DNA of 63,836 bases, counting the filler, from Sphacelaria rigidula (Eukaryota): assembly GCA_964200075.2 (NCBI GenBank). It is 9 parts of 9 records of this genome, joined end to end, with 100 filler letters (N's around TTAATTAATTAA, not from the genome) between each part and the next. Parts side by side here need not be neighbours in the genome. Positions count along the whole stretch, not along the records: positions 1 to 7,005 come from CAXNAA020016993.1; 8 more parts are not named here. One strand, written 5' to 3'. The notes beneath the pieces were generated by a model, which worked only from the letters and a program-made list of their open reading frames with translations, was not told the origin of the DNA and made no database searches. Made by a program: the position numbers and the translations under genes. This document shows, piece after piece, positions 270 to 56,733 of the stretch (positions are counted from its first letter, which is position 1; the number at the start of each line of letters is the position of its first letter).

Positions 270-585
270 CAGTTTTTTTTTGTTTTTCTTCCTCACACGT
301 TGAACCCGTTCCCTTCCTCGGGATGAGTCCGTGGTCTCAAGGGATTCAACTCATGTCTCCCCCGGTACGTGCCTTTCATTTTGGTCTCTCGCGGATTGGG
401 TAAGCACTTCCGCGCCGCGTCAACTCACGTCACACAACCCCAGTCGACTACTTTGTTTACTCACGTTCTCACGTTTTCCACGGTGGAAATCATACATCAC
501 GAAGAAAAAACCGACGCATCGGGAATCGAACCCCCGTTCTCTCCACCATAATGGTGGCAGTCGGACCATTACACCACCGGGGCGC
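270..585 (-). mobile_element. tRNA-derived SINE, family A
   Basis: Minus strand begins GCCCCGGTGGTGTAATGG (A box), then GGTTCGATTCCC (B box). The body is shared with 3330-3620 and 44195-44460, and it ends in an A-rich tail. Confidence 0.75.
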
Positions 586-2537: not shown

Positions 2538-3041
2538 TAACGCGCCCATATTTATATGTGTCATACTCCACTGTTATCCAGCGTATGTCATAGTCCAATG
2601 TGCGTGTGTGCTCACCCATCGGCTGATTCGGCGTCATGTTCACTTGATGAATGACTGTCAGACAGGCGTCTGTCTGCGGGGCCACTCTCAAGGGGTTGAA
2701 GTTGTCGAAAGCCACGTCTTGAGTTTCATTGAAAAAGATGTGGTGCTCCCGTTCCAAAAAGTTGGGTGCTTGCGTTGCGCCAGGCTATCGATTCACGCAT
2801 ATGTATGCGCACGCGACAGCATCGTAAAATTTTTATTTCATTTTTCGCGCTTAGCGCATTCGGTTTTTTTTTCTTCAGGCAAGAGAAAACGGCATGCTGG
2901 CTGCGTCGATCGATCTGCGATGGATGAATGAAGATTATCCTGAAACCCTGCCGTCACGCACTCATCACTAGCTCTGACACCAATACCGATCAAAATGTTC
3001 ATACCGCCGACGTGAAAATACACACAACGCTATTTTCACAG

Positions 3042-3293
3042 GAGGGCTACAACGAGCAGGAGGCCAGGGCGATCTGCCGCGCGCTGTTGACGGCCATTGA
3101 GCACTGCCACGAGCAGGACGTGATTCACCGCGACCTCAAGCCGAGCAGCATGGCGTTGTCCTCCGACAATGCTACCATCAAGCTCAGCGGCTTTGGGCTG
3201 GCCTGCAGCGTGGCTGACGGGCCTCGCTCCGAGCAGTGCGGAACTCCTCACTATGTCGCGCCTGAGGTTTTGCAAGGCGATTCTTACGGCAAG
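3042..3293 (+). CDS. CaMK-family kinase exon (subdomains VI-VIII) with atypical catalytic motifs
   Basis: cag|GAG...AAG|gt, 84 codons, phase 0. Contains VIHRDLKPSS, IKLSGFGLA and CGTPHYVAPEVL. Confidence 0.92.
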
Positions 3294-3329
3294 GTTTGTG
3301 CTCAGAAAACAAACGGCGCGGGCGACCAC

Positions 3330-3620
3330 CGTTTTTTTCTTCAGTCTCACTTTGAACCCCTCCCCTGTTCGTCAGAACATTCCCTTCCTTGGGACGACGA
3401 GTCCGTGACCTCGAGGGATCAACCCATCTCTCCCCGGTACACGCCAATGGTCAAACGACTGAGGCAAGCAACAAATGAGTACGCCCCCCCGGTACACGCC
3501 TTGCATTTTGCTCTCGCGGATGGGGGTAGCACTCCCGCACTGCGTCAGCTCCCGTCAAAGAAGCTCAGTGAACTACTTTTTTTTACCCACATACGCACGC
3601 TTTCAACGGTGGAAATCAGA
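3330..3620 (-). mobile_element. SINE family A body (head missing), interrupted by a short LINE 3'-end insertion
   Basis: Aligns by eye with 300-490 (TCCCTTCCT..GAGTCCGTG..CCCCGGTAC..CTCTCGCGGAT..CGGTGGAAATCA). Confidence 0.7.
3446..3486 (+). mobile_element. 5'-truncated 3' end of the oligo(C)-tailed LINE, with 14-bp TSD
   Basis: AATGGTCAAACGACTGAGGCAAGCAACAAATGAGTACGCCC is flanked by the direct repeat CCCCGGTACACGCC at 3432-3445 and 3487-3500. The homologous SINE copy near 360 has the empty site. Confidence 0.85.
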
Positions 3621-4629: not shown

Positions 4630-4765
4630 TATCACCTGGCTCACTTGGTGTGTACAGCTGTTGGTGCTTTTACCAGTGTCCGGGTTCGAGTCTTGGCTGT
4701 GCCGTTGCATCGTAGTGCATTACTCAATTGTTCAATTCGTATGGTACAGTCTACCTCTGACCACA

Positions 4766-4804
<39 letters not shown>

Positions 4805-4819
4805 CACCCCCCCCCCCCT
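4630..4819 (+). mobile_element. Short tRNA-headed SINE-like element ending in a long poly(C) tract
   Basis: A box TGGCTCACTTGG at 4637-4648, B box GGTTCGAGTC at 4683-4692, short body, then a C-run at 4769-4819. Confidence 0.5.
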
Positions 4820-4939
4820 ACNNNNNNNNNNGCCGTTTGTCATTTGTTCATTTCTTTTTTTTCCACTTCTTTTGGTTCAGGTTACCTCACCCCTCATTCC
4901 CCCCCCCCCCCCCCCCGCCCACACACGCACACCGTAAGA

Positions 4940-5030
4940 CCGTCCGTTCGTCTCGAAAGCGATGCGTAGTCAATGGTCAAGCGACTAAGGCAAGCAACAA
5001 ATGAGTTCGCTCCCCTCCCCACCCCCACCC
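4940..5030 (+). mobile_element. 3' end of oligo(C)-tailed LINE
   Basis: Encodes ..SSRKRCVVNGQATKASNK*, followed by GTTCGCTCCCCTCCCCACCCCC. Homologous to the copies at 3446, 21314 and 42627. Confidence 0.75.
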
Positions 5031-5199
5031 TAAGAGCGACAATACTGTAGCAGAAGATGAAACAGCCCATTCGGGACTGTCATCCATTTTATTATTATTA
5101 TTATCCATATGCAAGATAATTAGTGCGCTTCGGGCGAAACAATCTTAGCAGGATGCAGCTCACCCTCCATGCGACTCGCCGAACACATCACGGCGCTTC

Positions 5200-5335
5200 G
5201 CGATTGGTGATTGTTTGCGAGCCTGGTCCGGCGAAACCCCGGCGTGCTCCGTCCCGGCTTTGTAGGGATGCGAGGCTAACGGTATTGTGACCATAGCATT
5301 GCAGAATCATGCGCACTACCCCCTCCCTACCCACG
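5200..5335 (+). mobile_element. 3' end of a related LINE subfamily with C-rich tail
   Basis: GGCGTGCTCCGTCCCGGCTTTGTAGGGATGCGAGG..GCAGAATCATGCGCACTACCCCCTCCC matches the reverse complement of 28217-28317 and 21143-21213. Confidence 0.7.
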
Positions 5336-6727: not shown

Positions 6728-6785
6728 GGGGAGAGGGTTGCACTCACGATTTTGCATCTCGTCGTCATAACACCATTGGCCTTGG
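6728..6785 (-). mobile_element. Diverged 3' end of C-tailed LINE
   Basis: Minus strand reads GGCCAATGGTGTTATGACGACGAGATGCAAAATCGTGAGTGCAACCCTCTCCCC, next to a C-rich tract. Confidence 0.55.
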
Positions 6786-7005
6786 AGGGATGAGGAGGGG
6801 GGGGGAATCGATCACACGTCGGACAGCTCATGAGCTACCTAAAATAGCTAATCGTTTAGGACTCTCAGGTCTGTAGTCCAAGATCACAAACACATGATAG
6901 CAGTCCGGGAAGCCGCAGCTCTACCTCTGCGCTACTCTGCGTGCTCAGCGTTCGAGGTGACTTTACCACTCGGTAGTTGACAGATATTTCTCGGAAATGT
7001 ATGTT

Positions 7006-7105
7006 NNNNNNNNNNNNNNNNNNNNNNNNNNNNNNNNNNNNNNNNNNNNTTAATTAATTAANNNNNNNNNNNNNNNNNNNNNNNNNNNNNNNNNNNNNNN
7101 NNNNN
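7006..7105. other. Artificial contig linker (N-TTAATTAATTAA-N); also at 14110-14209, 21214-21313, 28318-28417, 35422-35521, 42526-42625, 49630-49729, 56734-56833
   Basis: Identical 100-bp spacer with stops in all six frames, recurring every 7,104 bp. Flanking contigs are 7005, 7004 (x7) and 7003 bp, consistent with length-sorted concatenation. Confidence 0.97.
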
Positions 7106-13100: not shown

Positions 13101-14209
13101 GGTGACCAACCCAGCGGCCAAGCGGCCAAGAAATATAATAAGGCTGTAACCCTTTGACCGCCAGGTTGTTGAGTTATTGCAAGGTTAATTCGCACCATTT
13201 TCAATTGAAAAATGATGACTCTTGAAAGAAGAAGAACCAACTTGGCAGTCCAATCGTTCCTCACTTCTCCTGGTCATCGAGTTCGGTCTTCATGAACAAG
13301 TCATTCTAAAGTATTTATATAAAAGGGAGAAACTAGTTGTATGTGAACGCAAGAGTCTATATCAAAAAAATATTTCAGGACACACAGGTCCCGCGATCGT
13401 GAATTAGAGTTTTTGAGGGGGGGGGGATACCCAGCCTGCTGTCCCCTAGATTGTCGCCGAGGCGTTAGCGGATGCGGTCAGCTGCGGTCTACAGAGATCC
13501 TTGGCATGGAGACCGCTGAGATGACGGACACACCTCCCCTCCTCCAAGCTCATCACCTACCATGATTACATTGGTTGTTGGATCATATTCCGTGTCGTGT
13601 GCCGCTCGACTATACCCACCACTAGTTCTGAAAAAATTGGCGAGGCGTGAGATGATATTGCTACTTCGGCTATACAGGCTGTCGCTATCATGCGCTCGTG
13701 TGTTGTACATGGATGTGTGTGAGCGTTGCCGGCATCCGAGGTCATCGGGACAGGGCAGGCAAGGAGCAGAAGTAGATATACGGACCTCGCAAAGCCCGCC
13801 AGACTTCTTCTGTCAGTGTTTGTTGACCAAAATATTTCAACAATATCAGCTTTACGGACGACAACCGCCAGACATTCGGAATTGACCGCGCCCTGTGGAC
13901 GTCAGCAGCAAACAAGGAGGGGGGGGGTTGCCGTGGCACGCGGGAGTGCTGCAGGGAGCGGAGAGGTTCATGATCTCATGGCACAGGAATGAAGAGGAGG
14001 CCAGCCGACTGCGTGCGATAAGACTGGAGACCAACGAAGCCCAAATAGCACGGCAATGACGACGGTCCAGAGAAGTGGGGGGTGGGGGGTGAACCCCCCC
14101 GATGAAGGGNNNNNNNNNNNNNNNNNNNNNNNNNNNNNNNNNNNNNNNNNNNNTTAATTAATTAANNNNNNNNNNNNNNNNNNNNNNNNNNNNNNNNNNN
14201 NNNNNNNNN

Positions 14210-17200
14210 GGAATACGACCTATTGCCCATATCACGCACATCGAGAACGCCTTCTATTTAAGCGACTAATATCCGCCGTCACACAAGCGCAACGCAAGTG
14301 TGAAAGGAAGTCTGACATACTCATGAGCCTCGTTTTTCGTGCAACCAAATACCCCTCCCCCTGTCGTAGGATGACTCGTGCGCTGTTGCGGGGAGCTAGT
14401 GCTACGCTGCTCGTGGGAGCAGTAGGTGTTGTCGGTGGCGGCAGGGCGCGGGGAGGGTTAGCATGGCCCGAGAGCGCGTGTTGTCGGAAATGAGAGGAGC
14501 AACTGGAGGTGACGGAGCTGAAATATTTGCGCGAGGGCCGATAGTGCGGAAATCAACGAAATCGGCATTTGTGGGCTTTAGCCCATCCAAAACTACATCA
14601 TGCGGTAGGGGGCGAGGGTCGCCCATGTGCATACCCGTCTCTGGGTAATGAAGGTCAAGGGCGTAAATGGGCGTTGAGAAACGCCGGATAGGGTACACGC
14701 CTGGTTCATTGGGTTCGGTTAGTCGGCAAGCTGGGCTGAAGTCTACAGCCGTTGGAGGAAGGGGCAGGTGGGAGAGAAGATCAGCATTTCCATTAGTTTT
14801 GCCTGGGCGGTGTTTGACAGTAGAGCCATGCTACGATAGGGGGGAGGGGTACTTGCTTCCACGAAAAAAGGGGCTCACAGGTGTGTCAGACGATCTAACA
14901 CACTCGCGATGCACCTGTATTCATGTGAAAATGGAGTCAATCGGTAGTAATTAGCGTTATGTATCGGTAACAAGCGTGCTGGAACAACCGTTGCTGCTTT
15001 CAATGAAAATATGAAGCGAAATTTCGCGGAAGAAGTGGCCCAAAATACCGTCCCCCCGATCGTAGCATGACTCAGTATATTGCTAAGCTCTCAGGAATTT
15101 CAACCAGCGTTGCACACGCGGGTTATGTTCGCCAACCTTGGCGAGGTGTTCAAGTGCTCCGCGATCCGTGTAGATTTGGAAAGGCACGCGGAACAAACAT
15201 TGTCGAAGGCGCTTTATTGCCCAAGTGATTACTCCGCCTTCCAACTCCAGTGGGCTCCAGTTGGCCTCGTTTGGCAGGGTGGCGCGACTGATGTAGAGGA
15301 TGGGTCGAATAGAGCCATCGAGTTGAGGCTGATTCAGGACCGCGCCGAACCCGTCGGTGCTGACGTCTGTGTGCAGTTGAAAGAGGCGAGAGCCGTCTCC
15401 GACTGCATCCCAGTCTGGGAAACGAAGGACCGGTTTTTAGGTGAGTGTTTCCAGCAAATCGCGAACGATAGCTTCCATGTCTTCGGCGAAGACAAACGCG
15501 GCGCCTTTTTGAAGCAAGTCCCTAATGGTGCGAATCCGTTTGAACAGGTTAGGCAAAAAAATGCGATAGTAGGACAGTCCACCCAATAATGAACGGAGTT
15601 GAGTAATATTCGTGGGCATCGGTAATTCAGTCATTGCTCTGACTTTGTTACTTTCCGGGTGTAGACCCGCCGGTGAAATTGAATGTCCCAGGGGATCCAG
15701 TTTAGTCGCGCCAAGGCGAGCTTTGGATGGAGATAGTTTCAAGTCGAGCGTCCGAATTCGAGAAAGAAACTCGCGTGAGGTGCGCACATGCGCAAGAGGG
15801 TAGGCTCGAAGGCGATAACGTCGTTTAAGTACATGATGATGCGTTCGAGATTCTCTGTAACGCGCTGCATCAAGCGTTGCAAACAGCCCGGTGCAGTGGC
15901 GGCGCCTTGTGGGATGCGGAGCCATTCGTAGAGCCCGGAAGATGTGCAGAACGCTGTCAGTGGGACTGTGTCAGGGTGAATGGCGCTCTGGAAAAAAACA
16001 GAAGCGAGATCAAAGGTACTGAACATTTTGCCTTCGCCTAGAGAGTCGAAGACTTCATCTATGCGTGGAATTGCAGGCTTCCCCACCACAGAAACGCGAT
16101 TTAGCCGTCGATAATTCACTGTGATGCGTATGTTTCCATCTTTTTGGGGGACGATCACTAGGGGTGAGGCCCATGGAGAAGATGAATGTTGGATCAATCC
16201 GGCACCTAAGTACGCGTCTAGAATGGCCTTAACCTTTTTGGTAAAGATGGGATTCGTCCGATACGGTCTAGAAGAGGTTGGCGAAACGCCAGGTTAAAGT
16301 GTGATTTCAAAGGGCAGCGTTTTGCAATGTCCCAGATCCGTTTTGGATCAAGAAAATCGGTCTTGGTACTCGCATAAAACATCGCTCAATTCTTGGATTG
16401 CAGCGGGTTCCCAACCGGGTCCATGTGGGTCCAAATTGATGTCACGTAAATGGGATGGGAGTTCATTCCACATGTGCAAGAAACTTCTCTGAGATTCTGG
16501 TGATATGCGTTGGAGCACTTCAGCAGGAGGGTCGGGAGTTAATGGTGCAGGGTCCACGGTGTGGATACGTGATGGAGACGAAGAAGTTACGTCGAAGCAA
16601 TACTCATCGACGCAATTGACCAAACCGCCGGTCGGAGGCGCCGAGTTGGGCGTCGAGGGTTCAGTGGCACATGTCTCAAGTGGAATGTGCATGAGGGGAG
16701 TAGCAGCGATACCCAAAACATCACCAGGTTCGAAGTTAGCATGACTCGTGAGGGGTAAAAGTTGTTTTCCTGCGGAGACAAAGTACTCTGTGCTGGCAGG
16801 CGCTCCAACCCGAGAAAGCATTTCGGCGAGGTAATGTCCCGTAAGGGCAAGCATGCCATTTCGGTGAACGAGGACAACTTTCAGCACTTGAGGATCATCG
16901 GAGAGGGTAAAACCAGCACTACCATCGTATCGTAGGTGATAAGCAGCTCCGGTAGCTTGTTCATTTTTTTGGTAGGCCAAGGCGCCGTGAAGAGTACCGA
17001 AATGTTCCAGATTGAGTCCTCCTCGAGGCGCAGACTGTGGCGGTAATGGTGGTAGCGTGCGGTGGGTGCGTTGATCAAACCGCATGTAACTATATCTGCC
17101 CATTAGCAAGGCGTGAGCCATGGTGCTGTCGGGGACGACATATCACCGGACTGCAAGGCAGGCAGATCGAGTTGTGTTGTGAAAGAATTGCACACTGAGA

Positions 17201-20200
17201 CGAACTGATTTTCATGCGGTCAAAGGTGCGGCGGAGTCACCAGAACCGCCCCATACTCGAGGTTGGGTCGTCATTTCGCAGGCTGCTGAAGCAGCGCAAA
17301 TCTGTTTCATGTGTTCCCACATTGATTCACGGATAAACGTTTGTGGGCTGCCGCTATGTAGCGAAGAGACGCATTTGGCATGCGTGGTGACGTATGGCCC
17401 ACAATGGAGCGCTACGCGAGTAGTAAAAGTGACCGGATCAACGGACACTTTACCACCGACAAGATCCGGACCATGTTCAGCCAAAATAAATTGATCGGGG
17501 TCAGCAGCGCTGACGGCGAAAACGGACGGCGGGTGATCCGCCGGGGGGTCAACGTTCTCACCAAAAGGTATGGTGGATGGTGTGTGATCACCAGGGTGAG
17601 CACAACTCGGCTGGTCATTAGCAATTTCATAGATGACCGTGTTGGGAAGACAGGGATCAACATCTATAATGGGTCTATGTCGTTCAGTGTCGTCTGTAGA
17701 ATAGGCAGGAATATCCGAAAGATCGGATTTGGATTCTTCTGTGATGCCTAATACATTCATCGAGCTCAAAGTCGTCGCATTTTGGAGAGAGTGAGGTCAA
17801 ATGTTTCCGTTCGAGGGAGGTGTTCGTGTTGATGCGCGCGCTTCGGTAGGGGCATGTTCACGGGGCTTCCTCTCTCGCCGTGATAAAGGATGGGGAACTT
17901 CCAAAGTGTTTGTGGAAACCCCAACTGCGTCCAGTGGGGTGGATGTGGTCAGCATCGGGGCATGCTCGGTCGAAGCTTGTTGACTTTCCGCAGGCAAGCG
18001 TGGCTGGGGAGTCATATAGCCGAATGTGAAGTAGAACGGTTTGTGTGAAAACCAGTCACGGGTAGCTTCGCGTGGTGTAATGAACGCGAAGAACGAACTA
18101 TTTCGACCTGGGTGGGTGTTACATGGCCCGAAGTGGTCAAATTCAGACCGGCGACACTTGAACCAGTCGAATGAAGTACACTACTGTCTGTGCGTGCGGT
18201 CGCTGAGGGAAGCCCTTGCCTCAAAGACGGGCGGTTGGTGTTCCCACACCTCAGACTTACGCTCTATTCTGAAGGATCAAGTCCAGAGCTGAGTGTAGAG
18301 CTAAGCTGTGTAGTCGACGCAACTGTCACGCTGTGTGCGTGGAGGTGAAGACGGGGGTCGGTATGAGCGGCCATCATTAGTACTCCTACACAGTGCCGGA
18401 GAGGTTGAGTGAGAATATTTTGTCGCTTATCCTACGGTTAATGTTGAAATTGTCTTCGTGTGTGGTGTCGGCGGCGCCGAAGACGTAAAAACGCCGGCGT
18501 CGGCATGTCATGGATCGGTACGATCAGCCATAAAGGAGCCAGGTTTCTGGCGTTGGAGTTCGAGTTATTGTGATTCGGTCCCGTGCGCTGGTGTGTATCA
18601 GCGGAATTCTGGTGACGGTGAGAAGAACTCTCTTTTCGCCGGGAGCCAGAGTTATCGTAGTTGTCGGGGCGACGGCCGCGATTTGAGCAAGTGTTGCCGC
18701 GGTTGTTAGAAGGGCGGCGAGAATTACGGTTGGATGTGCGGTGTTCACGCATGCGTTTCTGCCATCGGCGCCATGCTGGCTCACTGTCCTGCAGCTCAGA
18801 ATTCATGAGATCGAAAGAGTTAATACAAGGGCGAGTACGATCGCGAATACTGTGCCCTTGAGTGTTACAACTGGTGCAATTGTTTGCGTGGCGGCTGAAG
18901 GCCTCATGTCTGGCAGCAGACGAGAAGAGGAGGTTCTACAAGTGTGGGTCATCTGTAGTAAACACAGAGGTAGATACAGTGTAAACATCATCCCGAATCT
19001 CCGCGGAGTGTGGCCACCCGTCAAAACTGGCGCGGAACGGATCTCTCTGGTTTGCAACGTTCATGACGGAGCCGGCGACTGAGGCGGGCACCCATGAGGA
19101 ACGAGGCGAAGTGTGAGATCGACTAGGGGACCCTGAAGGGGTCGAAGAAGGCACAGAAGCAGACTGAGAACGAGCGGAAGCATACTTGTCGCCACGAATG
19201 GTGGGCGTCAAATTACTTTCCTGATGAACAAACGCACTCCACATAGTGTCGACAGAAGGAAAGGGCACCTCACGGTGTGCCAAAGCACCGGGAAACAGTG
19301 ATGGTATAAGCGTCGGAAACTGATGGGAAACACTATTCCTGACATATGATTGGCACATTGCATCCGATGGACCAGTCTGGCGGCCTACCCCAATAGTGCC
19401 GGACATAACAAGCTTGGATTCTCGGAGGTAGTTCGCGAAGGGAACATTTGCTGCGACCCCGAAAGAACAAAGTCATTGTAAAGCACTCCCTTAAGTGCTG
19501 CGATCGAAGTAGCCGGTCAAGCGGCGCTCCAGATCACGGAGTAAAGCCGTGCATGACTTCCCCGAGGCGCGGTCCGCATCCATAGCGGCCATGAAACCAT
19601 CAAGGATTTGTGTCAGAGCAGCGGCAGTGTCGGGCGAGCGACGGTTGATGGCGCGGTGCAGAGCTTTGTGAAGAGGAGTCTGCCATCCATCAACCCAGTT
19701 GGAATCTTCGAAACGTTGAGCACCCGTAAAGTCTGTTAGCTGAAGGATGTTCCGAAGATTACGACGTACAGATGTGATGAGAGCAGAAGTGAATTGCCCC
19801 GAGTCTTCGTTACATGCTGCAGGCATGGGTTTCACATGCCAAAGTTTCATCACGTCCATTTGGATGTATTCTCTCTGGATGGCGGTGGTGCGGGCGGATT
19901 CCGCTCGAGCGGCGGCTGCTGCTGCACTAGCTGGCTTGCTCTCGGTCGGCGGCAGCGGCAGCCAGAGTGCGAGCCAAAGTGGAAGATAACGGTTTATCCG
20001 AATTGCCATCCGAAGGCCTAAAACCTGACGCGAAACATTTGCTAGACGCGGTGTAGCCCGACTTGGGTCGGGAGAAACCGACGCGGGCGAGTTCGTGACA
20101 GACCGAATTCTGGGCTTGGTGGAAGAAGAGCTCGATGAGCCGCTACTCTGGTGTGTCCTGTTCAAACCGGTGGTGGGGCGGGTCACACGGTGTGGTTGGG

Positions 20201-21142
20201 TCCTCCCAGAGGAGAAGCTTGAACCTCCGTGGTGGTTGCGAGAATCACCGCTGCGATTGCGCTCATAATCGGCAATATCATGCCTGTGGCGTCGGCGACG
20301 AGGAGTCACCGAGATCGAGCCCTCATCAACTTGGGCTGTGGTGGATTTGGAAGCGGTGCGCAATGCGTCGAAGAGCTCGGCAATGGACAGGTCGTAAGGG
20401 GTGGTGGTTTGTTGGATGTGGCGGACTAATTGGCCAATGGCAATCGAAAGGGGATCATCAGGAGGACAAACCCCGTCATGGTCCAGATATGAAGCTACTA
20501 CGCGTTGGAGTGGTCGAATGAGCGCTAGCCAAGTGTCGCGAGAGCTTTGCAAAGGGTTCGAAAGGGTGTACTTGCCCGCAAGAGTCTGCACAGAAAGCGT
20601 GAACCAAGGGATGCCATCGCGGTGGATGAAAAAGTGGCGCGGTTTGGCAGTGGTGTCGGGGCGGGCGGTCGGAGTAGGGGGAGGTTGGGATGGCATGCGG
20701 TGGGAGCGAGGAGCGGCTGCGGCGTGAGAGGCCCGTGAGCGCTCCTCCCCTAGTTTGCGGAGTGGAGCGTGATACTCCTCGGGGGAGAGTGTAGACGCCG
20801 CTGCATCTGTATTGCGTTGCTGATTGACAAGATCATTCATCATGGCTGGTGTGTGAGCAGCATACTCATGGATGGTTGTTCTTGGTCAGTGCGGCCATGG
20901 ACCATGAAAATACGTGGGAGCAGCCCGAACGGGCAGTGTTCCGGACCCAACTGTGGGCGGTCCTGCTGCGACGAAGGCGCAGGGTTGGACGGCGCGACAA
21001 TAGATGTAGGGGGGATTGAAGCGGGTGAGAGTGTACCAGAAGCCCCGGAGCCAGGGTGAGTACCACTGTCGGCGTCGGTGTCGGTGACGGTGGCGGCAGC
21101 GGGAGCTGGGGCCGGGGCAGCAGAAATGGCGGCTTTGGAGGT
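14210..21142 (-). mobile_element. Decayed Ty3/Gypsy LTR retrotransposon (gag-like region, protease, RT, RNase H; integrase beyond the contig end)
   Basis: RT motifs SPWASPLVIV, FSTFDLASVFFQ, TAFCTSSGLYEW, YLND and QLRSLLGGLSYY at ~15500-16250. RNase H at ~15090-15420. Degenerate protease SLHSGSPQTFI at ~17350. Long gag-like ORF at 19491-20843. Many stops and frameshifts. Confidence 0.9.
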
Positions 21143-21213
21143 GGGGGTGTAATCATGATCATGCATGCCACAGTCATAAGACCATTGACCTCGCATCCCT
21201 ACAATGCCGGGAC
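21143..21213 (-). mobile_element. 3' end of C-tailed LINE abutting the Gypsy gag region
   Basis: Minus strand reads GTCCCGGCATTGTAGGGATGCGAGGTCAATGG..GATTACACCCCCACC; cut by the contig end. Confidence 0.7.
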
Positions 21214-21313
21214 NNNNNNNNNNNNNNNNNNNNNNNNNNNNNNNNNNNNNNNNNNNNTTAATTAATTAANNNNNNNNNNNNNNNNNNNNNNNNNNNNNNN
21301 NNNNNNNNNNNNN

Positions 21314-21380
21314 AAGGGACGCGTGGTCAATGGTCACACGACTAAGGCAAGCAACAAATGAGTATGCCCCCCCCCTCCCA
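21314..21380 (+). mobile_element. 3' end of oligo(C)-tailed LINE (contig start)
   Basis: GGGACGCGTGGTCAATGGTCACACGACTAAGGCAAGCAACAAATGAGTATG followed by a C-run. Confidence 0.8.
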
Positions 21381-27600: not shown

Positions 27601-28216
27601 TAAATCGTCGTCTATTCCCCTGCAACATCGACGCCTGCAGGAACCAAAATACCCGCTATGTCTTGGAGGTGTGATGTTGCGGAAGGAAGACGAGAATTTG
27701 GCGGCTTGAGAGAAAAATGTCTAGTAGTAACCCTGCCGATACGCGCGTACACCGGTATCCATATAATACTAACCGCGAGAGCGATGGTGGGAATGTCATC
27801 GCGGCGGTAAAGGCCAACATTATTCCGGATGCGATCAGCACAACGGGGGGCGGCGGGCGGCAAATACTAACACCTCTGACTGCCGCTGCGCTGTGCATGG
27901 AGCTTCGCTCACGGCCCTATCTGTAGCAATAGTGGCTGATTCGCGTCCACCTCGCGCTAGGAGTATGTAGTCCTGGGCCCATCAAGTTGGACAGGGCTGA
28001 CACTAAAAAACAAGAGACTATATGCAACGCTTGTCGCAGCAAGGGGCTGAATTTTCCACGGTTACTACTGTGAATCAGACGGTCGGTGTCTGAAGCGAAT
28101 ATAACTATATGTTCACGAGGCAATGGATACGTGATTTGATTCTCACGTACTGAGACAGGGGTTCATCTATTCATTTTCCAGGGGCACAGTCCCCCACAGC
28201 GCCTGAAGTCGAAACG

Positions 28217-28317
28217 GGGGGAGGGGGGGGGTGCTCATAATCTTGCATGCCGTAGTCATATGACCATTGACCTCACATCCCTACAAAGCCGGGACGGAGC
28301 ACGCCAGGTTCTCGCCG
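28217..28317 (-). mobile_element. 3' end of C-tailed LINE (contig end)
   Basis: Minus strand reads ..GGGATGTGAGGTCAATGGTCATATGACTACGGCATGCAAGATTATGAGCA followed by a C-run. Confidence 0.75.
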
Positions 28318-30519: not shown

Positions 30520-30770
30520 GAGCATTTCTACGACAGCCCCTCAAAAAAACGTGGATGGTTAGGGCAGGCAGAAACCCACACGGAAATCAAAATGAAAAAA
30601 TCCGAGCACAAGGAGCAGCTGGGAATTCCCACGCTTGGTTTTGTTTTCGCCAATGTCTCCCATATGAGGCGCTTCATGCAGCCTCATACCAAACATCAGG
30701 CGCTGTATGGCCATTTTCTTCGTGACAAGTTTGGGCTGGTTTGGAGGCAGGCTATCGTAAAAAGAGTATC
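30520..30770 (+). mobile_element. Older diverged copy of the ~250-bp MITE
   Basis: Internal sequence (CCGAGCACAAGGAG..GGGAATTCC..GGCGCTTCATGCAGCC..GGCTATCGTA) matches 39910-40157; TIRs are eroded. Confidence 0.75.
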
Positions 30771-35358: not shown

Positions 35359-35421
35359 GACACTTTCTACGATAGCCCCCCCCAAAACCAGCTAAAGTGT
35401 CACGAAAACAATGGCCTTACA
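35359..35421 (-). mobile_element. End of the ~250-bp MITE, truncated by the contig end
   Basis: TIR GACACTTTCTACGATAGCCCCC, same orientation as the copy at 51892. Confidence 0.8.
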
Positions 35422-35521: not shown

Positions 35522-38500
35522 ATCCCAGCAGTTCGCAAGTCGGGTTGCCCACTTGAGCCTCAATTCAGAGTTGAACCTCAATTCGCACAATTTGCTGTTG
35601 TGTGTTCGTCACCAGGCAGACAAAGTATTACACAAGACGACTCGTCTCCTAACTCGCCCACGTTGGCCCCTTTACCAGACGCCGGGTTCAACAATACAGC
35701 TTTACCAACCGTGCGTCCTGACGAATCGTCTCCTAAACCTCCCATGTTGGCCCTAACTAATGATGGTACTGAGTTGATTGGCGTTCAAACTCAACATCGC
35801 GCCTCGATGAATCGTCCCCTGTTGCGACCAAGCTGGATAATGTAATTGATCCCGCTTTGCACAATGACGATCCGCCCCCTCTGTTGGCCAAGAAGGATGA
35901 AACATGACGCACAGATCAGTCGTCGGGTCCAACCACGACAACTGCCCTTCCCCGACATCGCCCCTCCATTCCAGTATATGACATTCATCCCTCGACTGAT
36001 GAGACAAATATTCCAGGCACAAACGCTGACACTTCATGCACGCACCATCCTTCCGACCAAAAGCTTGTCCCACGGGATCATCGACGGGTGTACTTTAGCA
36101 CCTTTGTTCAAAACGTGAAGCAGGATGTGTCAGATGTCTTACCCGAATTCGGGCCCGATCTCGTCAGGGTACTGCAACTATGGATGATGCTTCTTTTACG
36201 ACCAAGATAGGTTTACATGGTGCAGCACATGCAAATTGTCATTTGATATCTCTTGCACTGCCAGACTCTGGTTCACTTCAAACCTTCATTACAGCCAGCT
36301 GCTGGCAACAGATGATCAACGCGGGTGCGGCGATCAAGCATTGTCTGTCCACCGTGCGCCCTCGTGTTTTTGATGGCTTTGGTTCCTTCACATCTCTTAC
36401 GGTCAATCAATCGGTGAGACTAAGTGTACAATTCTACCAGGATACTACTCCGACTGCTCGGTTGTCCGTATGGGCACTAAGTGTGCCCGACGGTTCCATG
36501 TCTTTTGATGTTTTGTTGGGTCGAGATAGTTGGCTTCGTTTTTCCACACACACGTCTACGACGGACACACCTGTCCCGAACCGTCTTGTCACTGGGTCAC
36601 TTCGACACTGATTCGGGAGCTCATGCTTATGAGGATGACCCCACGCAAACAGGTAATGCTTTCCGGCTGTACTATGTTGGTGAACCTGTAGTCTCGCTTT
36701 CTCGTGAACCCCAACTATTCCAAGTGAACCTCGCGAGACGCAATGGATCGCCCGCCCTCACCGGACATTATTTCGTCGAACTGCTCAAACATGACCAAGC
36801 ACAGGTTGGTCCGTTTGAACGGACCGAAGTCTTTGTCCACGAAGGTAGGCAAGTCATTTACCTCACGTCCCCTGCATGTTTCGGTATACTCAACGGTCAG
36901 TTGTTGGGTTATGCTAAAGCGCCTTTCATACGAACCGCCCTGTCAGATGTGTGCCCCCCGGCGAACAACAACTCGCCGACCGACCCCACGAAATCCACGG
37001 GCCCCCTCCCGCTACACATGCCTGATCCCATGGTGGTGACAAATCCACCGGATGCGCCTGACCCTCAACCCCCAAATGCGTTACAGGATAGATTTTCTTC
37101 AGAACAACGCGCCAATTTTCAAAAGTTGTGGGATGGCATTCCCCCTCACTTACGGCATATTGTTTTTGATGTATTTGGCGATGGTTGGACACCCACTGTA
37201 ATCGATAAATTGATATCCATCTTGATTAGATACTCTGAACGGTTTTCTACTGCACCCTTGGATTTGGTTCGATATACGACGACACCGTTTAAGATCATCA
37301 TTTCTGATGGCACTTCGCCTATCGCTATGCGTCCGTGTCGTACGAACCCCCTCTTGGCGGATAATTTCCAGGTAATTCTCGATGGTTACTTATCCGCTGG
37401 TTTAATTCGGCACTCGACGTCTCCGTGGGCCTCGCCTTTAGTGGTCGTCCGTAAGAAGAATGGCAAAATCAGACTGACGGGCAATTATCAGCGATTGAAT
37501 GCTGTCACCAAACTCGCCCTACTATCACTCTCACGGGTTGATGAAATTATTGACTCTCTTGGCGGGGGTAAAGTATTTTCGAACTTTGACATGCAGTCCG
37601 GCTACCACCAGCTCGTGATGGATCCAAATTCCATTGAACTGACAGCGTTTTGCACGCCATCAGGTTTGTAAGAGTGGTTAGTTAGACCACAAGGTGCCGC
37701 CGGAGCTCCAGGTGCGTTTCAACGTGTGATGTTCCGTGTAACTGATGGATTGCCCAAATGCCATATGTACCTTGATGATGCCGTGTGCCACGACTGCATC
37801 CCGGCTGAACACGTCGAACAGTTGGCATCATTCTTCAATCGGTTTAAACAACACAACTTGAAACTCGCACCCTCCAAATCCCGCATTGACGCCACGAAGA
37901 TTGAGTTCTTGATTCATTGCATTACCCCCGAAGGTCGTAGCCCAGACCTCGACAAGGTCGCCGCACTCTCCGATATGCCCATGCCACGGGACATTTCTCA
38001 ACTTCGTTCCTTTGGTTTAATCTACTACAGACAGTACTTGCCAAACCTTGCCCAGAAGCTAAAGCCCCTCACCACCCTCCTCACAAAATGGGTGAAATTT
38101 GTGTTCACATTGGGAATGGAAAAAATCGTCCGCCGCCTCCTTGACACCCTTTCGCGCCCGCCGATTCTCGTCTTCCCCGACTGCTCGGCCGCGGAGCAGG
38201 GTTCCCGCCCTTTCCGGCTCCATACAGATTCTTTCAAAATTGGGTTGGCTGCACATTAGAACAGGAGCACGTCGATGCTACTGCTCGTCCCATTGTCTAT
38301 CGAGTCGTACCACTTTTCCGAATAAACAGAACTGGTCTGTCATGCAACAAGAGGCCGGCGCAGTTGTTTGGGGCGTGCAACGTCTGCGTCAGTATTTGTA
38401 TCACATCCCGTTTTTGATTTATACCAACCACGAGTCTTTGGAAAGCCTTGCCAAAATGGCGGAACACAACGCTAGGGTCCAACGCTGATTCAAAATCCTG

Positions 38501-41500
38501 TCGCCTTCACACTTTCAACTGAAGTACCGCACAGGTCCCCAGAATGCAAACACCGACTTCCTGTCACGCTTGCCCACGCCAGCTCAACCTATCGATGAAT
38601 CTACCATGGGACGTATCACCGATCCCACCGAAGACATTGTATATTTCATAAGCAGGAATGGAGATAGAGGTCTCTACACACCACTTTCACCGAGAGAAAC
38701 GCTGGCTTTAGGCATGGGTGGGTTGGCGACCACAGCCCACGCATCAGTCCTGGGCAGCTTGCAACCTCAATCGCTGTACTCAGTCTGGAATGGACTGTCT
38801 ATGAATACTGTTGGCTATGGTCATTTTCGTGCAACTGGCCAGCGCATGGTTTTCGCAGCAGGTGTAGAACCGTCCTTTGCTGACTCCGTCTTACCAGTTC
38901 AAGTTCGAGATTTGATTTCGAGTAGGACTCTTGGACGGCGAACCGCCGAGACGGCCACCAAATTAGCCGTATCCGGTCCTGACCTTCCCCTCCCTGCCCC
39001 TACCCCGGTCCCCGATAGTTTCCTTGCGCCCCCGCAGCCTACGCGACGCAAGGCTCCCAAAACATCGACCCCGACCGCGCCGCCCCTGCCAACCATAGCC
39101 GAAACCACGGCTGTGCCCCCCTCCAGTGGTGATGATATTGCAAACACCACCACAACGCCGACCACGCTCATCGACGCAGGAGTAGACGTTAAGGTTCCGT
39201 CTGAGAGTACACCAACTGGTAGGCTCACCCTTGATTCCGAAATCACCGCTTCGTGCCAACCCCGCCCCGAACCGACCTCACACGAAGTGAACGCTTCAAC
39301 AGATGGTGTATTCAAGGAACGTTTGACTCTCTTCTCCCACGCCGATTAGGCCCGGGAACAACAGGCAGAACTTGCTTGTAAATCAGCTATCCATTATCTA
39401 TCTAAAGGTTGTCCATGTCCATTCTCAGAAACTGAATTCCTTTTGCCAGTCGGGAATCTCAAAGCGCCCACACAGGATTAAGTTACTGAACTTTCAAGGA
39501 AAGGTATGCTACATACAGATGATGATGATATGGTTCTGTTAGTTTGCCGGCCCACAGCCTCCCCAGGGAGAAGCCTACAAGTCGATATGCCCGCTTGCTA
39601 GGTGATGAACCCATCCGCGTCTATGTCCCGATGCTCCTGCGCCCATGGGTTCTACACGAATGCCGTTCACAGGCATCGACTCATTTAGGCGCCATTAGGA
39701 CCTCCAGATGTTGGGAGTGTTTTTATAGGTGGATTTGTATGAATCAGTGTTGTCGTTGGTGGGTGAGGCGTTGTCTTTTGTGTCAGGCGCGAAACACTTT
39801 CCGTCAAACAGTTCGTTGTCCGATTGTTTCCATGCCATTCCCAAACGGGCCCGGTGAAGTAGTTTCATGGGACTATTTTGGTCCTTTGCCCCTGACGGAT
39901 AGTGGGAATGACACTTTCTACGGTAGCTCCCCCCCCAAAAAGTGCATGGTTTTGGGAGGCAAAATCTTCACGTAATTCGAAATGGGAAAAGCCGAGCACA
40001 AGGAGAAGCTGGGAATTCCTATGCTTGGGTTCGTTCAAGTCAATGTTGCCAATATGAGGCGCTTCATGCAGCCTAAACCCGCGCATCAGGTACTATATGG
40101 CCATTTTTTCGTGACACTTTCAGCTGGTTTTTGGGGGGGGCTATCGTAGAACGTGTCGAATAAGTATATTTTGTTGTTTACGGATATATTTAGTCGACAT
40201 ACGGTGATGCACGCCGTCCCCCCCAGTAGTTATACCGCGGAAGGTAACGCCAACATTCTCGTCTACATGTACATCCCACTGTGGGGTGTGCCCAAACACT
40301 TATTATCTGACAACGGCCCGCATTTTTCAGGCAAACTTTCTGCCGCCGTCAGTGACCTTTTGGGTGCCCATCGCATTTTTACTAGTTCATATCACCTTTC
40401 CACCTATGGTGGAACGGAACGAGTGAACCATACGATGGCACCGATGCTTGCTGCTGTAGCGAATGAGAGACAGGTGGACTGGGATCTGCACCTGCCCCTT
40501 GTCCAGATGAACTGCAACAATTCAGTCAATGCCGCTATGGGATTCTTGCCGAATGAAATTCATGTCGGACGCATGCCTCGGTTACCTTTAACGGTATTCG
40601 AACGCAAAAATACAGGTGGACATCAGAGTCTGGATCGTGATGTTGTAGAGTATCATTTGTCGGTTAGCACTCGTCTTCGTCTTGCATATGAAGTGGTACG
40701 AGAACAGAACCAAATCAATTTGGCCAAGGTGGCCAGGGCGAACTCGATGTTGGATGATGTGGTGCATAACCGCCCGGTGTGGAAGGTAGGCCAATAGACA
40801 GAGATGTATAACGATGTGAAGACCATCAATCAAGGGGCTAGCTCGAAATCATCATCTTTGGATGAAGTGTTGAAGGCGAAACTATCCTTGAATTGGACTG
40901 GTCCTTGGGAAATTTTACCTGTTGGTCCAAGCGCTACCGCACCCGACAAGAGTCCGGTGGGAGCGAAACTTTTGTATTTAGATTTTCCCACGGATGAACC
41001 TGGTTTGAAACCGAAAAATCGCGTCTCGATGCTACGATGCAAACCGTGTATCCCCCCTCATGACTCCTCTGACATGCCCAAACAACTGCCGGTAGGGCTT
41101 AGCCAGTATGTGTTCACCAAGTATGCAATCAAAACTCCGTCGTATCATATGACGGTCGAGGATGCGGACGCACCCCTGGAACGTGTTGAGGTAGATAGGA
41201 TTTCGGGTCATCAACTGGTTCGTGGTCGTGGAGGTAAAATAGCGGTAATGTATCAGACACATTGGAAGGGTATCATGCGTGTGACATGGGAGCGTGAGGT
41301 TGATTTGCGTCATTGTCGTCGGGAAATATTGCTGTACTGGGTAGGAGATACCGTCCAACACCGCCCGTTGAATAAGAGATATCGGTCCATGCGCAAGGGA
41401 GCTGCCGCTCGAGAACTGGCACGTGAACACTCAGCGCGGTTTGTTGTGGCAGGATATAGCGTTCTTTCGCGTTCACAATACATGCAGTGTTTTCACGGAA

Positions 41501-41778
41501 TACGATTGCCCAAAGGGGCGTTTTTTTGGTATATGGCTTTGGATTCACTGTGGTGGTTGGGAAAAATTCATTTTGTCGATCCTGCATCTGACCACTCCTA
41601 CTTTATCCGTTTCTTTGATGACCCGAGCCCCCTTAAGATTAGCTTGGATGATGCGTACTACACCGAGGAGCCGACCGCTCGGAGGGGATCCTGGTGCCTC
41701 CAACGACACGACCAAGTCGAACTCGAAACAGCCGTTCTACGGAACACGGACACCGCTTGGGATGCAGATGACTCATGA
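35522..41778 (+). mobile_element. Decayed chromodomain-bearing Ty3/Gypsy retrotransposon pol (PR-RT-RH-IN-chromo-Tudor/PWWP-like)
   Basis: Protease LPDSGS at ~36255. RT SPWASPLVVV, FDMQSGYHQ and YLDD at 37420-37780. RNase H FRLHTD at ~38210. Integrase H..H/C..C, DYFGPLP, SDNGPHF, TERVNHT. WTGPWEI, then chromodomain YQTHWKG..TWE. Contains stops, frameshifts and a MITE insertion. Confidence 0.93.
39910..40157 (+). mobile_element. 248-bp MITE with 4-bp TSD (GAAT), inserted in the integrase
   Basis: TIRs GACACTTTCTACGGTAGC / GCTATCGTAGAACGTGTC. GAAT at 39906-09 and 40158-61. Removing it restores ..PLPLTDSGN-KYILLFTD... Confidence 0.92.
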
Positions 41779-42626
41779 TGCCACATCCGAGTCTGCTTCC
41801 CCATTCACCTCGCGTAGTGTACCGCATTCGAGTCGCTTGTCTTGCATTGCAGCGTCGTTGGAAAACCATGTGCTCCCCCCCCCCTTTCCCCCTTCATTTT
41901 TTTCCCACTGGTTAGCCCCGTACTTGTAGTGGTTGATGTCGTGTTTTGTGTTTGGTATTTTGTCTTTTGTTTTCATATTTTGAATTTTTCTGTGTGTTGT
42001 GTTTTGTTTTTTGTTGTTTTGGCCTTGATTTTGTGTTTCGGTTTGTTTTGCCTTTGCGTCAACTGTTTTGATTTTTGTTCTGGTCTGTTTTCTTGTTTTT
42101 GTCTTCTTTTCTTCTCTTTTCGCCTCGTGCTTTGTGTTCGATTTTTTGTGTTCAATGGGTACTTCTCTTGAGTTCATCTGGCGAAGTACACGTGACGCCC
42201 GTTCCATTCCTGACCACGAGTCTGGAGCCTTGAACCTCCGTCCTCCGCGCCGTACATTCACAACTATTCCGTCCACCGGAACAGTCACCACGAGTTATTT
42301 ATTTCTTCATTTTTTTCTCGTTGTATGCACATCTTGTCTTGCTTTGTTTATTACATAACAGCCGATCCTGATTTTTGAGGTTGAAACATAAAATGAGGTT
42401 GAAGTCCCATTTCTCCATTACAGGGAAGATACGAAAGACTAACACAGAGCGAAAGTATCTTACCCCCCCAAACTCCGCGGGAGACCGCGAGAGTAGGTCA
42501 CCTGCTGAATCGACATCAATATTCANNNNNNNNNNNNNNNNNNNNNNNNNNNNNNNNNNNNNNNNNNNNTTAATTAATTAANNNNNNNNNNNNNNNNNNN
42601 NNNNNNNNNNNNNNNNNNNNNNNNNC

Positions 42627-42672
42627 GTATCACATGGGCAAACAACAAATGCGTACCCCCCCCCCCCCCCCC
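42627..42672 (+). mobile_element. 3' end of oligo(C)-tailed LINE (contig start)
   Basis: GGCAAACAACAAATGCGTA followed by a long C-run. Confidence 0.6.
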
Positions 42673-49620: not shown

Positions 49621-49899
49621 ACGGTGAAANNNNNNNNNNNNNNNNNNNNNNNNNNNNNNNNNNNNNNNNNNNNTTAATTAATTAANNNNNNNNNNNNNNN
49701 NNNNNNNNNNNNNNNNNNNNNNNNNNNNNCTCGGAAGTGCTCTCCCTCCCTTTCTACTTTTCCTGTTACCAAACAGTATAACCCAACTTCATCGCATTTC
49801 TTTTTAAACTTCATTCTCGTCATGTCGCTACGTACTCCGAATACCAGCACTACTAGTAGTACCTTACCCGACCACTCTTCACTCCTCCATCCGCCCTTC

Positions 49900-50717
49900 C
49901 TTACTGTTTTGATGGAGGGGGGGTGTCTGTACGAAGAGCACCGGAGAAGCTCACGGAGTCAACCATGTGTGTTTGGAAGTTTCCCGCAGAAAATTATGAG
50001 CCGTGCACGAGGCCCGAAAGGCACCGGGTGACCATTCTTCTGACCAATCACGGTCGTCAAAATGAGCACTTTTATTACGGTAGAGGTAGACAACAGGTAA
50101 ATACATTCGCTGTCTACCCTCATAACCCATTTTGATCATTCCTAATCAACCATAGATTATATATATAACCAACACGCAGGTGTTTGAGTATCTTTGGTAC
50201 ACTGTTGTGTCTGTCTATTCAGTACTGCCTGAGCGCCGTACTAGCTCCACACCTCCATCTGGTATCAAACGTCATGGTTCGACACGCGAGTGGCGGCCAC
50301 GAGTACCCGACGCACGTAGATATAGACAAGTACTTCGACGGTGAGGCGACCGCCATCGCCGAGCAATTGCTCTACGGTAGCCAGGGGCGTTTGCAGCGGT
50401 AGTCAGGGTGCAATATCCAAACGCATGCTGCGTACACTCGGAACGTTCAACAGTGTAAGATCTAGTACGCTGCAGACCGCATGTGCAGCTGCGGCACGAT
50501 ACACTATAGACTGCACAGCAAAAATATGAGGCGTAATAATCAGATGGTCGACAACCACACGACCGTCTGTGTTATGACGCTACTATGTACCTCGTATGCA
50601 CTCCCGGTCCCTTCCGTCGTAGAGTAGGCGTCCTGAGTTGCGACAAAGGAATGAATCTGAACCCAAAAAGTGTAGTGTCTATCTCAGTCTACCAGCGGGG
50701 GGGTCGCTGTCTAAGGG
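49900..50717 (+). mobile_element. Non-autonomous TTAA-type (piggyBac-like) element, right end intact
   Basis: Ends TCGCTGTCTAAGGG|TTAA. Internal 49960-50140 resembles 54610-54790. Confidence 0.6.
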
Positions 50718-51891: not shown

Positions 51892-52141
51892 GACACTTTC
51901 TACGATAGTCCCCCCCCCCAAACCAGCCCAAAAGTGACACGAAACAAATGGCCATACAGCGCCTGATGTTTGGGTTCAGGCTGCATGAAACACCTCATAT
52001 TGGCAACATTGGCGATAACGAGCCCAAGCGTGGGAATTCCCAGCTGCTTGTTGTGCTCGGCTTTTCCCATTTCGATTTACATGAAGATTTTGCCTGCCAA
52101 AACCATGCAGTTCTTTGGGGGGGGCTATCGTAGAAAGTGTT
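51892..52141 (-). mobile_element. 250-bp MITE with 4-bp TSD (GTAT)
   Basis: Same family as 39910-40157 in the opposite orientation. GTAT at 51888-91 and 52142-45. Confidence 0.9.
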
Positions 52142-55460: not shown

Positions 55461-56733
55461 CCCCACGCATCCCTGTCGAGACGGAGCACAGTTCCTCCTC
55501 CTCACAGAGGCACCTTCGACATTCCGGCGCTCGTTACGTTTCTTCCATACATCACACTAAAACATATTACATATCTTATACCCGTCCTGTTTCGCCGTCT
55601 CTGGCCGCCATCTATCTCCTAGTACGGCCATCGTTTTCTCCCTACTGCCTAATGCATCAAACGATTCCATGCCAAATTTGCTCACGTCCCGCATTCCTCG
55701 CTCTTGTACGTCCCGTTCCTGCTTGTATAGTTCACATTCTGCCGCTATATAGCTCCTGCTCTCTATTGCTTTGCCACAGGGGCAGTTCTGTCAATCTACT
55801 TCCTCCTCTTGTCGACGACTGGTAAATCTATTTCTTCTTTCTGGCAGGTCTAGGTCCCCCACCCGAAATCGCAGTTTCGGATTTGTCGCAGCATCCATTG
55901 GGCCATGCAAAGATGCTTCCATCCCTACCCCCTCTCTCAACCCACCATGTATCTCCAGTGTTCTTCCTCGTCTACTTTGCATCTGAGTGCACCTTTTCCC
56001 CTTATTCCTGTCATATCTCTCACTTTTGTCTTGTACCCCGCGCCTTCATCTATGGACAGTATTTCGTCTTGGTTTCCTCCTGTCTCCTTCCACACCTCCT
56101 CGACTTCTCCATCTTACCTTGTAGCACACCCTTTTGCACGTTTCTTTCATACCATCCTATCAACTTTAGTTGGTAATCTCTTTCTCTGCATGTTCTTTGA
56201 GCTATATTGTCATCACAATTTCCTCATGTCTCTGTTTATTTGAAGTGAATACATTCCCAACTCTGCTCTCAAAACTGTATTACTCGTCATTTTCGAGCGC
56301 CCAAGTATTTTCTTAGCTGCTGCCATCTGTACTGCTTCCAACTTCTCCCCCAGCTTCACGTTCCCCATACTTATCCTGCACATTCCAGCTTTGGGACGAT
56401 CACGTTCATCAGGATACATTTGTTGATCCTGGTGACGAGGTGCGAGTCTCTGAGGATCACGTCCATCCTGCCTATCTGTGCCTTACCCTTCTCTATTACT
56501 TTATTATTGCGTGCATCTCGAGAGCAGTTTCTTGATATCTCTACGCCAAGGTATGTATGCTGGTCCACGATCGGCAGTTCCTCTTCTCCCCACTTCCATT
56601 TTGATATTTACCGGATTTTTCTCATCTTCGTTACAGACGAGTACCGCGCATTTGTTGACTTTCGCCGTCACTCTCCATTCCCTAGTGTATTCTAGCGCCT
56701 TGTCTATCTGTTTCTGTAATCCTTCTAGTGTTC
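55461..56733 (-). mobile_element. Decayed non-LTR retrotransposon (LINE) ORF2: RT end/thumb and C-terminal Cys/His region
   Basis: EGLQKQIDKALEYTREWRV..NKCAV; YLGVEIS; VIVPKLE; KLRFRVGDLDL; CPCGKAIESR..ECELY. The C-terminal APSRQGCV matches the C-tailed 3' ends. Confidence 0.88.

Follow-up and report, generated by a model that had tools for sequence, protein, structure and literature searches.

What kind of retrotransposon ends its copies in C's and enters sites where C's already stand, and how would such an element be copied into the genome? The tails and target choice of LINEs inform how reverse transcription is primed, and both can be read at a 41-nt insertion in DNA of Sphacelaria rigidula, a brown alga of the order Sphacelariales. 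The window, by which we mean the whole stretch of 63,836 nt analysed here, consists of nine pieces of ~7,004 nt each; the 100-nt spacers between them (44 N, ttaattaattaa, 44 N) lie at 7006-7105, 14110-14209 and 21214-21313 and then every ~7,104 nt, and adjoining pieces are unplaced contigs, not genomic neighbours. GC content of the window is ~50%, and one kinase exon (2988-3296) matches a partial unnamed Sphacelaria rigidula protein at NCBI with 100% identity. A preliminary description of this DNA had assigned the insertion to a LINE family with oligo(C) tails that inserts at C-runs, a poly(C) counterpart of L1. Our analysis identifies the copies, almost certainly, as those of a C-tailed, C-site-preferring LINE of the RTE-X type.

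Results

A filled site and its empty counterpart

The insertion lies on the plus strand between two copies of a target site duplication (TSD), CCCCGGTACACGCC, at 3432..3445 and 3487..3500 (both +), which are identical at 14 of 14 positions with no extension on either side. The enclosed 41 nt (3446..3486, +) are a heavily 5'-truncated RTE-X 3' end of the kind called A-type below; they read ..NGQTTEASNK* gtacg CCC, terminate ..AAATGAGTACGCCC and are 93-98% identical to the 3' ends of three relatives from outside the window, L026, L007 and L089. The insert sits in one of two copies of another repeat (250-500 and 3330-3620, minus strand) that have ~230 nt in common, and the paralogous copy reads ..CTCCCCCGGTACGTGCCTTTCATTTT.. 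at ~345-385, without the 41 nt. The preliminary description had the coordinates of the CCCC-led duplication exactly right, as well as the absence of the insert from the paralogous copy. Where the empty site has a C5, C4 stands upstream and C7 downstream in the filled one; C's were thus gained with the insertion. The element entered a C4-C5 site inside ordinary sequence of another repeat, which argues for a preference and not for strict site specificity. One clean filled-versus-empty site for a C-tailed element is part of what this window adds.

The host repeat had been labeled a SINE. ARAGORN made zero tRNA calls on the window, and a tRNA-like stretch at ~500-585 (reverse complement), with box-A- and box-B-like motifs and a T6, follows copy 1 of the repeat only; we therefore do not adopt a tRNA-derived SINE as its label.

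Two types of 3' end in the window

All eight 3' ends listed in the preliminary description are present, related and alignable. They comprise an A-type set (3446-3486, 4940-5025, 21314-21379 and 42626-42672) and a B-type set (5229-5332(+), 6728-6784(-), 21137-21213(-) and 28216-28317(-)), the two types being ~80% identical over ~65-70 nt. As had been stated, a C-rich tract terminates each of the eight and an A tail none. The tail of the insert at 3446 is C7. The A-type copy at 4940..5035 (+) comprises a ~70-nt terminal unit (4940-5009), the tail ctcccctccccaccccc and the downstream copy (5026-5035) of an imperfect, C-rich TSD, which, read from the sequence, matches at 9 of 10 positions (caccgtaaga at 4930-4939, caccctaaga at 5026-5035, +); its upstream flank (4899..4939, +) is C18 followed by gcccacacacgcacaccgtaaga. 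This copy is 90% identical to L089 over 72 nt, and its start point is that of the ~78-nt units common in DNA-run contigs (see below). The remaining two A-type ends, both on the plus strand, are cut by contig starts: 21314..21379, which reads ..KGRVVNGHTTKASNK*, has the tail C9tccc and is 92% identical to L089 over 66 nt, and 42626..42672, with a tail of C17.

Among the B-type ends, that at 5229..5332 (+), with the tail ccccctccctaccc, is 78% identical to 28214-28317 over 108 nt; nothing upstream of 5229 matches L089, and this end is probably non-autonomous or of a second lineage. The copy at 6728..6784 (-) is truncated to ~47 nt (6738-6784), carries the tail ccctctcccc (6728-6737) and is adjoined on its upstream side by a further C-rich tract, C9tcctcatccctcc (6785-6805, -). 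The other two, at 21137..21213 (-) with the tail cccccacctcc and at 28216..28317 (-) with the tail C9tC6, are cut by contig ends. The window holds only incomplete B copies, in which the sequence upstream of the ~65-100-nt module is unrelated to L089, and each of the three B copies checked has a stop in the LINE frame. Four of the window copies have both flanks within their contig.

We also considered a hairpin in the 3' module, with 11 predicted pairs and 96.6% of cells paired. Its covariation is no better than that of shuffles (120 of 500), and for this reason we do not use it as evidence for structural recognition.

A full-length relative encodes endonuclease and reverse transcriptase

A 17-mer from the A-type end, run against metagenome contigs, gave 83 loci, 80 of them chance matches and three true relatives. 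A 20-mer run against prokaryote genome contigs gave 3 loci, 2 by chance and the third a mis-binned MAG contig, L089, and a scan of viral contigs gave 0 loci. L026 and L007 each hold an intact 671-aa frame with RVT_1 and the C-terminal part, ending ..RK(R/G)CVVNGQ(T/M)TKASNK and followed by TGA, gtacg and a C-run; the frame read earlier from the window, ..CVVNGQxTKASNK* with TGA, 5 nt and a C-run, was correct, and these intact outside ORFs end alike. L089 is full length, with a single 1382-aa ORF that contains Exo_endo_phos (193-415), RVT_1 (763-1012) and a C-terminal Cys/His motif and ends ..GCVVNGQMTKASNK*. An APE endonuclease and a reverse transcriptase in one ORF bear out the original call of a LINE, and PF03372/PF14529 are present in several relatives. 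The element measures at least ~5.1 kb in L089. Upstream of the 1382-aa frame there is no sense ORF of more than 51 aa, and ORF1 is absent; two traits of the L1 clade, such an upstream ORF and an A tail (seen at 0 of 12 intact 3' ends), are thus lacking. Among named sequences, those closest to L026 are Ectocarpus sp. proteins, with 43-71% identity, that end ..RGRVVNGLTAK(A).

Three further features of L089 deserve description. The part of the ORF ahead of the endonuclease (aa 1-190) has no Pfam match and contains a motif kept in the relatives P0046 and P0113 (..VLVVLVFGVP..R..F....G.. vs ..NIIVWGLHKELTTLEVRAKFADMGL..); this ~190-aa N-terminal region may be an RNA-binding domain that replaces ORF1. 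In the would-be 5' UTR, at ~4740-4842 on the plus strand and antisense to the LINE, lies an inverted ~100-nt unit resembling the RTE-X 3' module, which begins GGTGCTCCGTCTC and ends CCACCCCTCCCC (alignment score 19, against a shuffled maximum of 14) and which could be a nested insertion or a part of the element. The 5'-most ~150 nt (5114-5254) hold two direct repeats of ~62-80 nt with 82.5% identity, and contigs of two RNA libraries stop at 5162/5163, a weak hint that the element begins near this point.

C-runs at tails and at targets

The outside copies end in C10 (L026), C8 (L007), cctccccccctcctccc (L059) and C13 (L089), with unrelated flanks after each. All of the 12 intact 3' ends, eight in the window and four outside, therefore carry an oligo(C) tail whose length varies, and none carries poly(A), in agreement with what had been proposed from the window; a diverged copy at 55463-56733, whose 3' end is missing or replaced, stands outside this count. 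The C tract begins 5 nt past the stop codon in every copy, and the simplest reading of this is that the element itself encodes the tract instead of acquiring it in the manner of poly(A). The ~65-nt module ahead of it is 90-96% identical between window copies and elements of other marine hosts.

Insertion at C-runs, the other half of the original proposal, holds as well. In element orientation, all four visible 5' junctions have CCCC at most 45 nt upstream, and three of the four have C7 or more: C18 before 4940, C9 before 6784 (reverse complement) and C7 before 49910 (reverse complement). The background in 45-nt windows is 12.6% for CCCC and 1.0% for C7 or more (binomial P ~2.5e-4 and ~4.5e-6, respectively). 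A perfect TSD occurs only at 3432-3500, and the other three junctions are imperfect or one-sided: the 6784 copy lies between two C-rich tracts, and the 3' side of the 49910 copy is lost to a contig end. TSD length is variable and 5' truncation extreme, down to 41-78 nt, both in line with the analogy to L1 drawn in the preliminary description.

In public sequencing data, 20 of the 24 runs listed, from 13 studies, hold at least half of the sampled L089 words. Four runs, all as assembled contigs, were aligned to L089: two RNA libraries and two DNA runs of one organism (X4 and X2). A G-run, on the opposite strand, adjoins the element's last base in 418+106+106 contigs of X4 and 119+50+50 of X2 among the matches listed, and the sequence beyond these G-runs is unrelated. 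Many copies in the DNA runs start at L089 ~171-176, a point ~78 nt short of where the C tract ends; C-runs precede units truncated there in 81+69+94 contigs of X4 and 42+54 of X2, again among the matches listed. Joints at which a contig goes back by ~78 nt, with G-rich letters between the two sides, show tandem arrays of the ~78-nt unit. Summed word depth in X4, which is not a copy number, stands at ~1.4-1.6 million at the 3' end and at 43-125 thousand near the 5' end, a fall compatible with 5' truncation.

RNA-library contigs cover most of L089 at >99% identity, including a 4629-nt piece in X15 over L089 537-5162 with 7 differences and pieces in X17 that reach 5163. RNA libraries may contain DNA, and contigs show neither ends nor strand; these contigs are weak hints at most of transcription of the element and of an RNA end free of poly(A). 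Near-identical L089 copies also occur in runs labelled as three organisms and in marine, algae, soil and sheep-gut metagenomes or metatranscriptomes. Taken with the copy in a bacterial MAG, this variety of runs indicates that algal LINE DNA contaminates diverse data sets.

Body pieces, contig ends and homopolymers

With L089 as the probe, pieces of the LINE body were detected in the window as well. A 5'-truncated ORF piece at 49730..49910 (-), cut by a contig start, corresponds to aa 22-80 of the L089 ORF at 68% identity and is preceded, upstream in element orientation, by C7 tccatc (49911-49923, -). At 55463..56733 (-), truncated by a contig end, lies a stretch of a diverged copy that spans the reverse transcriptase and the C terminus (aa 948-1371) and is 76% identical to L089 at the nucleotide level over 1281 nt; it departs from the family ~50 nt before the expected end, so that it is without the last ~50 nt and without a C tail. 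The A-type ends of the window are 90-96% identical to L089 against the 76% of this body piece, a comparison between different copies and hence a hint only. Pfam searches of 63 long window ORFs found RVT_1 in two gypsy-like LTR elements only and none in the LINE. Both LTR retrotransposons are degraded: one at 14210-21130 (-) has RVT_1 at 15739-16293(-), and the other, at 36100-42300 (+), has RVT_1, RT_RNaseH, Integrase_H2C2, rve and a weak chromodomain at 36481-41778(+). Tandem arrays of ~90-190-nt repeats with 74-85% identity occupy 61830-62560 and 63100-63836.

The high copy number of the family breaks assemblies. The preliminary description had placed four contig ends in this repeat; the family is indeed found at contig ends, but the count is 6 of the 16 inside the window. 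It had also been suggested that the family seeds the many poly(C) and poly(G) tracts of this DNA, which holds here for a minority: only 7 of the 36 C/G runs of at least 7 nt touch a recognisable copy, four as tails and three at 5' junctions. Five of the 36 lie inside a different repeat family, unrelated to the LINE, whose members at 30525-30767, 35359-35421, 39911-40157 and 51892-52140 are 78-92% identical and contain an internal C8-C10 run (..cactttctacgatag C8 aaaacc..); head-to-head pairs of this repeat stand at 39.9-40.2 kb and 51.9-52.1 kb. At 4769-4831, C34 aaca C12 directly precedes a 10-N gap, and the sequence upstream is unlike the LINE; here the assembly breaks at a long homopolymer.

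Discussion

Our analyses revealed a clean insertion with its empty counterpart, C tails at all 12 intact 3' ends in and beyond the window, an excess of C-runs at the 5' junctions, and a full-length relative with endonuclease and reverse transcriptase in a single frame. Is the property new, a possibility that the preliminary description had raised? It is not, for Ectocarpus RTE-X elements are already annotated as '(C)n 3'' with 'C-rich' TSDs in a 2025 Genome Biology paper (PMC12477816), which reports seven LINE/RTE-X families with 16,418 copies, or 3.41% of the genome, and places RTE-X among the most abundant Ectocarpus repeat groups. In its Supplementary Material 3, the entry for RTEX-1_Ec32 reads 'single EN-RT ORF; (C)n 3'', that for RTEX-2_Ec32 '(C)n termini/TSD', the TSD column reads 'C-rich' for all RTE-X rows, and RTEX-N1 'can be present in tandem'. 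The same source gives the 3' end of RTEX-N1 as common to RTEX-1 and RTEX-2, and RTEX-4_NV and RTEX-1_BF as the best blastp matches (PMC12477816). In the available main text, 'c-rich' has 0 occurrences, the C tail is unmentioned and no mechanism is offered (PMC12477816). A young RTEX-1 is named in the Saccharina genome paper, whose available part is silent on tails, and RTE goes unmentioned in a preprint on the comparative genomics of brown algae. Literature searches returned no printed mechanism or account of C-tailed LINEs, in searches that would miss papers spelling only 'poly(C)'. The trait is thus already catalogued in Ectocarpus, and the window extends it to the Sphacelariales and to other marine hosts, a modest addition.

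The likeness to the Ectocarpus elements is close. The single EN-RT ORF of RTEX-1 and RTEX-2 recurs here, where it was tested on the outside copy L089, as do the (C)n 3' terminus (12 of 12 intact copies) and the C-rich TSDs, represented here by one perfect, two imperfect and one one-sided junction. Length is 5.5-5.9 kb in the available RTEX-1 and RTEX-2 entries and at least ~5.1 kb here. RTEX-N1 and RTEX-N2 are given there as abundant non-autonomous partners with the last 60-100 nt in common; the B ends of the window have ~65-70 nt in common with the LINE, and no complete B copy is present. The annotation of tandem copies in the same source matches the tandem ~78-nt units in the DNA runs, and Ectocarpus sp. 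proteins have the same C-terminal motif, ..R(G)RVVNG.TAK. The host order differs, however (Sphacelariales), and L026 shares only 60-71% identity with the closest named Ectocarpus protein. Architecture, tail, TSDs and an indirect similarity through Ectocarpus sp. proteins would together link the element to RTE-X.

How does such an element compare with LINEs whose priming is better characterized? Mammalian L1 has a poly(A) tail and nicks DNA at 5'-TTTT/AA-3'. Likeness to L1 extends to a homopolymer tail complementary to the strand that is, or here would be, nicked, TSDs led by the tail base, variable TSD length and frequent 5' truncation. The element differs from L1 in that its tail is C and not A and would not come from ordinary polyadenylation, in the absence of ORF1 and in its clade; moreover, its putative partners have a 3' module in common with it and not the tail alone. 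The available part of PMC3747384 documents the poly(A) dependence of L1, the plant RTE tails '(TTG)n or (TTGATG)n', and LINE/SINE pairs, including those of the eel, in which the reverse transcriptase recognises the 3' module. Ectocarpus RTE-1/2 are entered as '(CAA)n 3'' in the available annotation (PMC12477816). With 'stringent' LINEs of the RTE/L2/CR1 type our element shares the single EN-RT ORF, a very short 3' UTR and a short 3' repeat, as well as, probably, non-autonomous partners that share its 3' end, and severe 5' truncation. Its repeat unit is a single base, C, so that tail and target tracts merge into homopolymers. A further comparison is offered by Kibi, Koshi and Waldo, R1-clade LINEs that Kojima and Fujiwara reportedly described in 2004 as microsatellite-specific. 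These are alike in inserting into simple repeats that match their own terminal repeat; they are of another clade, and in our element sites with only 4-5 C's are entered.

We propose the following model as the likely explanation of the whole: a brown-algal RTE-X-type LINE with C tails and C-rich targets would use a 3' module and be copied by target-primed reverse transcription primed at G-runs. The endonuclease would nick the bottom strand at or within a G-run; by the usual logic, the TSD starting CCCC at 3432-3500 places this nick just 3' of GGGG. The 3' G's set free would base-pair with the C's that end the RNA and serve as primer for reverse transcription, with the ~65-nt 3' module probably recognised by the reverse transcriptase as well. 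Cleavage of the second strand at a variable distance would then yield TSDs that begin with C's, and priming more than once at the C tract, or jumping between templates there, could build the tandem arrays of '78-nt unit + C-run'. The 5' truncation, the variable TSDs and the terminal repeat match target-primed reverse transcription. Judging from sequence, we lean, with some reserve, towards pairing of the tail with the G-run, the idea put forward in the preliminary description, as the cause of the C-site preference.

Could the C's belong to the target and not to the element? Under strict site-specific insertion into pre-existing C-runs, the RNA would have no tail and the flanking C's would be a split or duplicated target, in the manner of microsatellite-specific LINEs; this might be suggested by the C-rich tracts that bracket the short copy at 6728-6805 and the C-runs that bracket the ~78-nt units in contigs of the DNA runs. 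Yet at 3432-3500 a C4-C5 site became C4 + C7, so that at least 3 C's arrived with the insert, and every copy set in unrelated flanks has C8-C17 immediately behind ..gagtacg; we consider this explanation quite improbable. Far less probable still is an artefact in which a fragmented assembly, through homopolymer errors or chimeric joins, mimics C tails at contig ends. The ~7-kb contigs are unplaced, several copies border on a gap, and C34..C12 precedes one of the gaps, but four copies lie inside contigs with both flanks, and the same end with its C-run recurs in three independent metagenome contigs, in the mis-binned MAG contig and in contigs from another four runs, which come from four studies.

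The preliminary description had also called the priming of this family a poly(C) analogue of that of L1. Taken in its pure form, this analogy would mean a 'relaxed' mode in which the homopolymer tail alone matters, any C-tailed RNA would be mobilised and 3' sequence would be shared by common descent. The homopolymer tail, the TSD led by the tail base and the extreme 5' truncation do mirror L1, and the 41-nt copy was inserted despite missing most of the 3' module. What this account leaves out is a ~65-100-nt 3' module common to the autonomous and the probably non-autonomous form: the B form keeps that much of the LINE 3' end at ~80% identity with unrelated, stop-containing sequence upstream, and RTEX-N1 and RTEX-N2 of Ectocarpus have, in the available annotation, only the 3' 60-100 nt in common (PMC12477816). 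The higher identity of A-type ends (90-96%) than of the body piece (76%) to L089 leans the same way, as a hint from different copies only. We therefore regard a purely L1-like mode as unlikely; by analogy with LINE/SINE pairs, the shared 3' module points to specific recognition of the 3' end and not to a mechanism that works purely through the tail.

Returning to the model of a C-tailed RTE-X-type LINE primed at G-runs, what is its relevance? It is possible, and from sequence we suggest it tentatively, that brown-algal RTE-X represents a homopolymer-primed system distinct from both known modes, combining a G-run-nicking endonuclease, a genome-encoded oligo(C) RNA end and a ~65-nt module; such a system, of which the literature searched holds only a catalogue note, would create and lengthen C/G homopolymers and build '78-nt + C-run' arrays. 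In brown-algal genomes, part of the C/G homopolymers and part of the assembly breaks are explained by the family. An element that works with C/G instead of A/T homopolymers would, in addition, be a natural test of primer-template pairing against endonuclease specificity in the choice of insertion sites.
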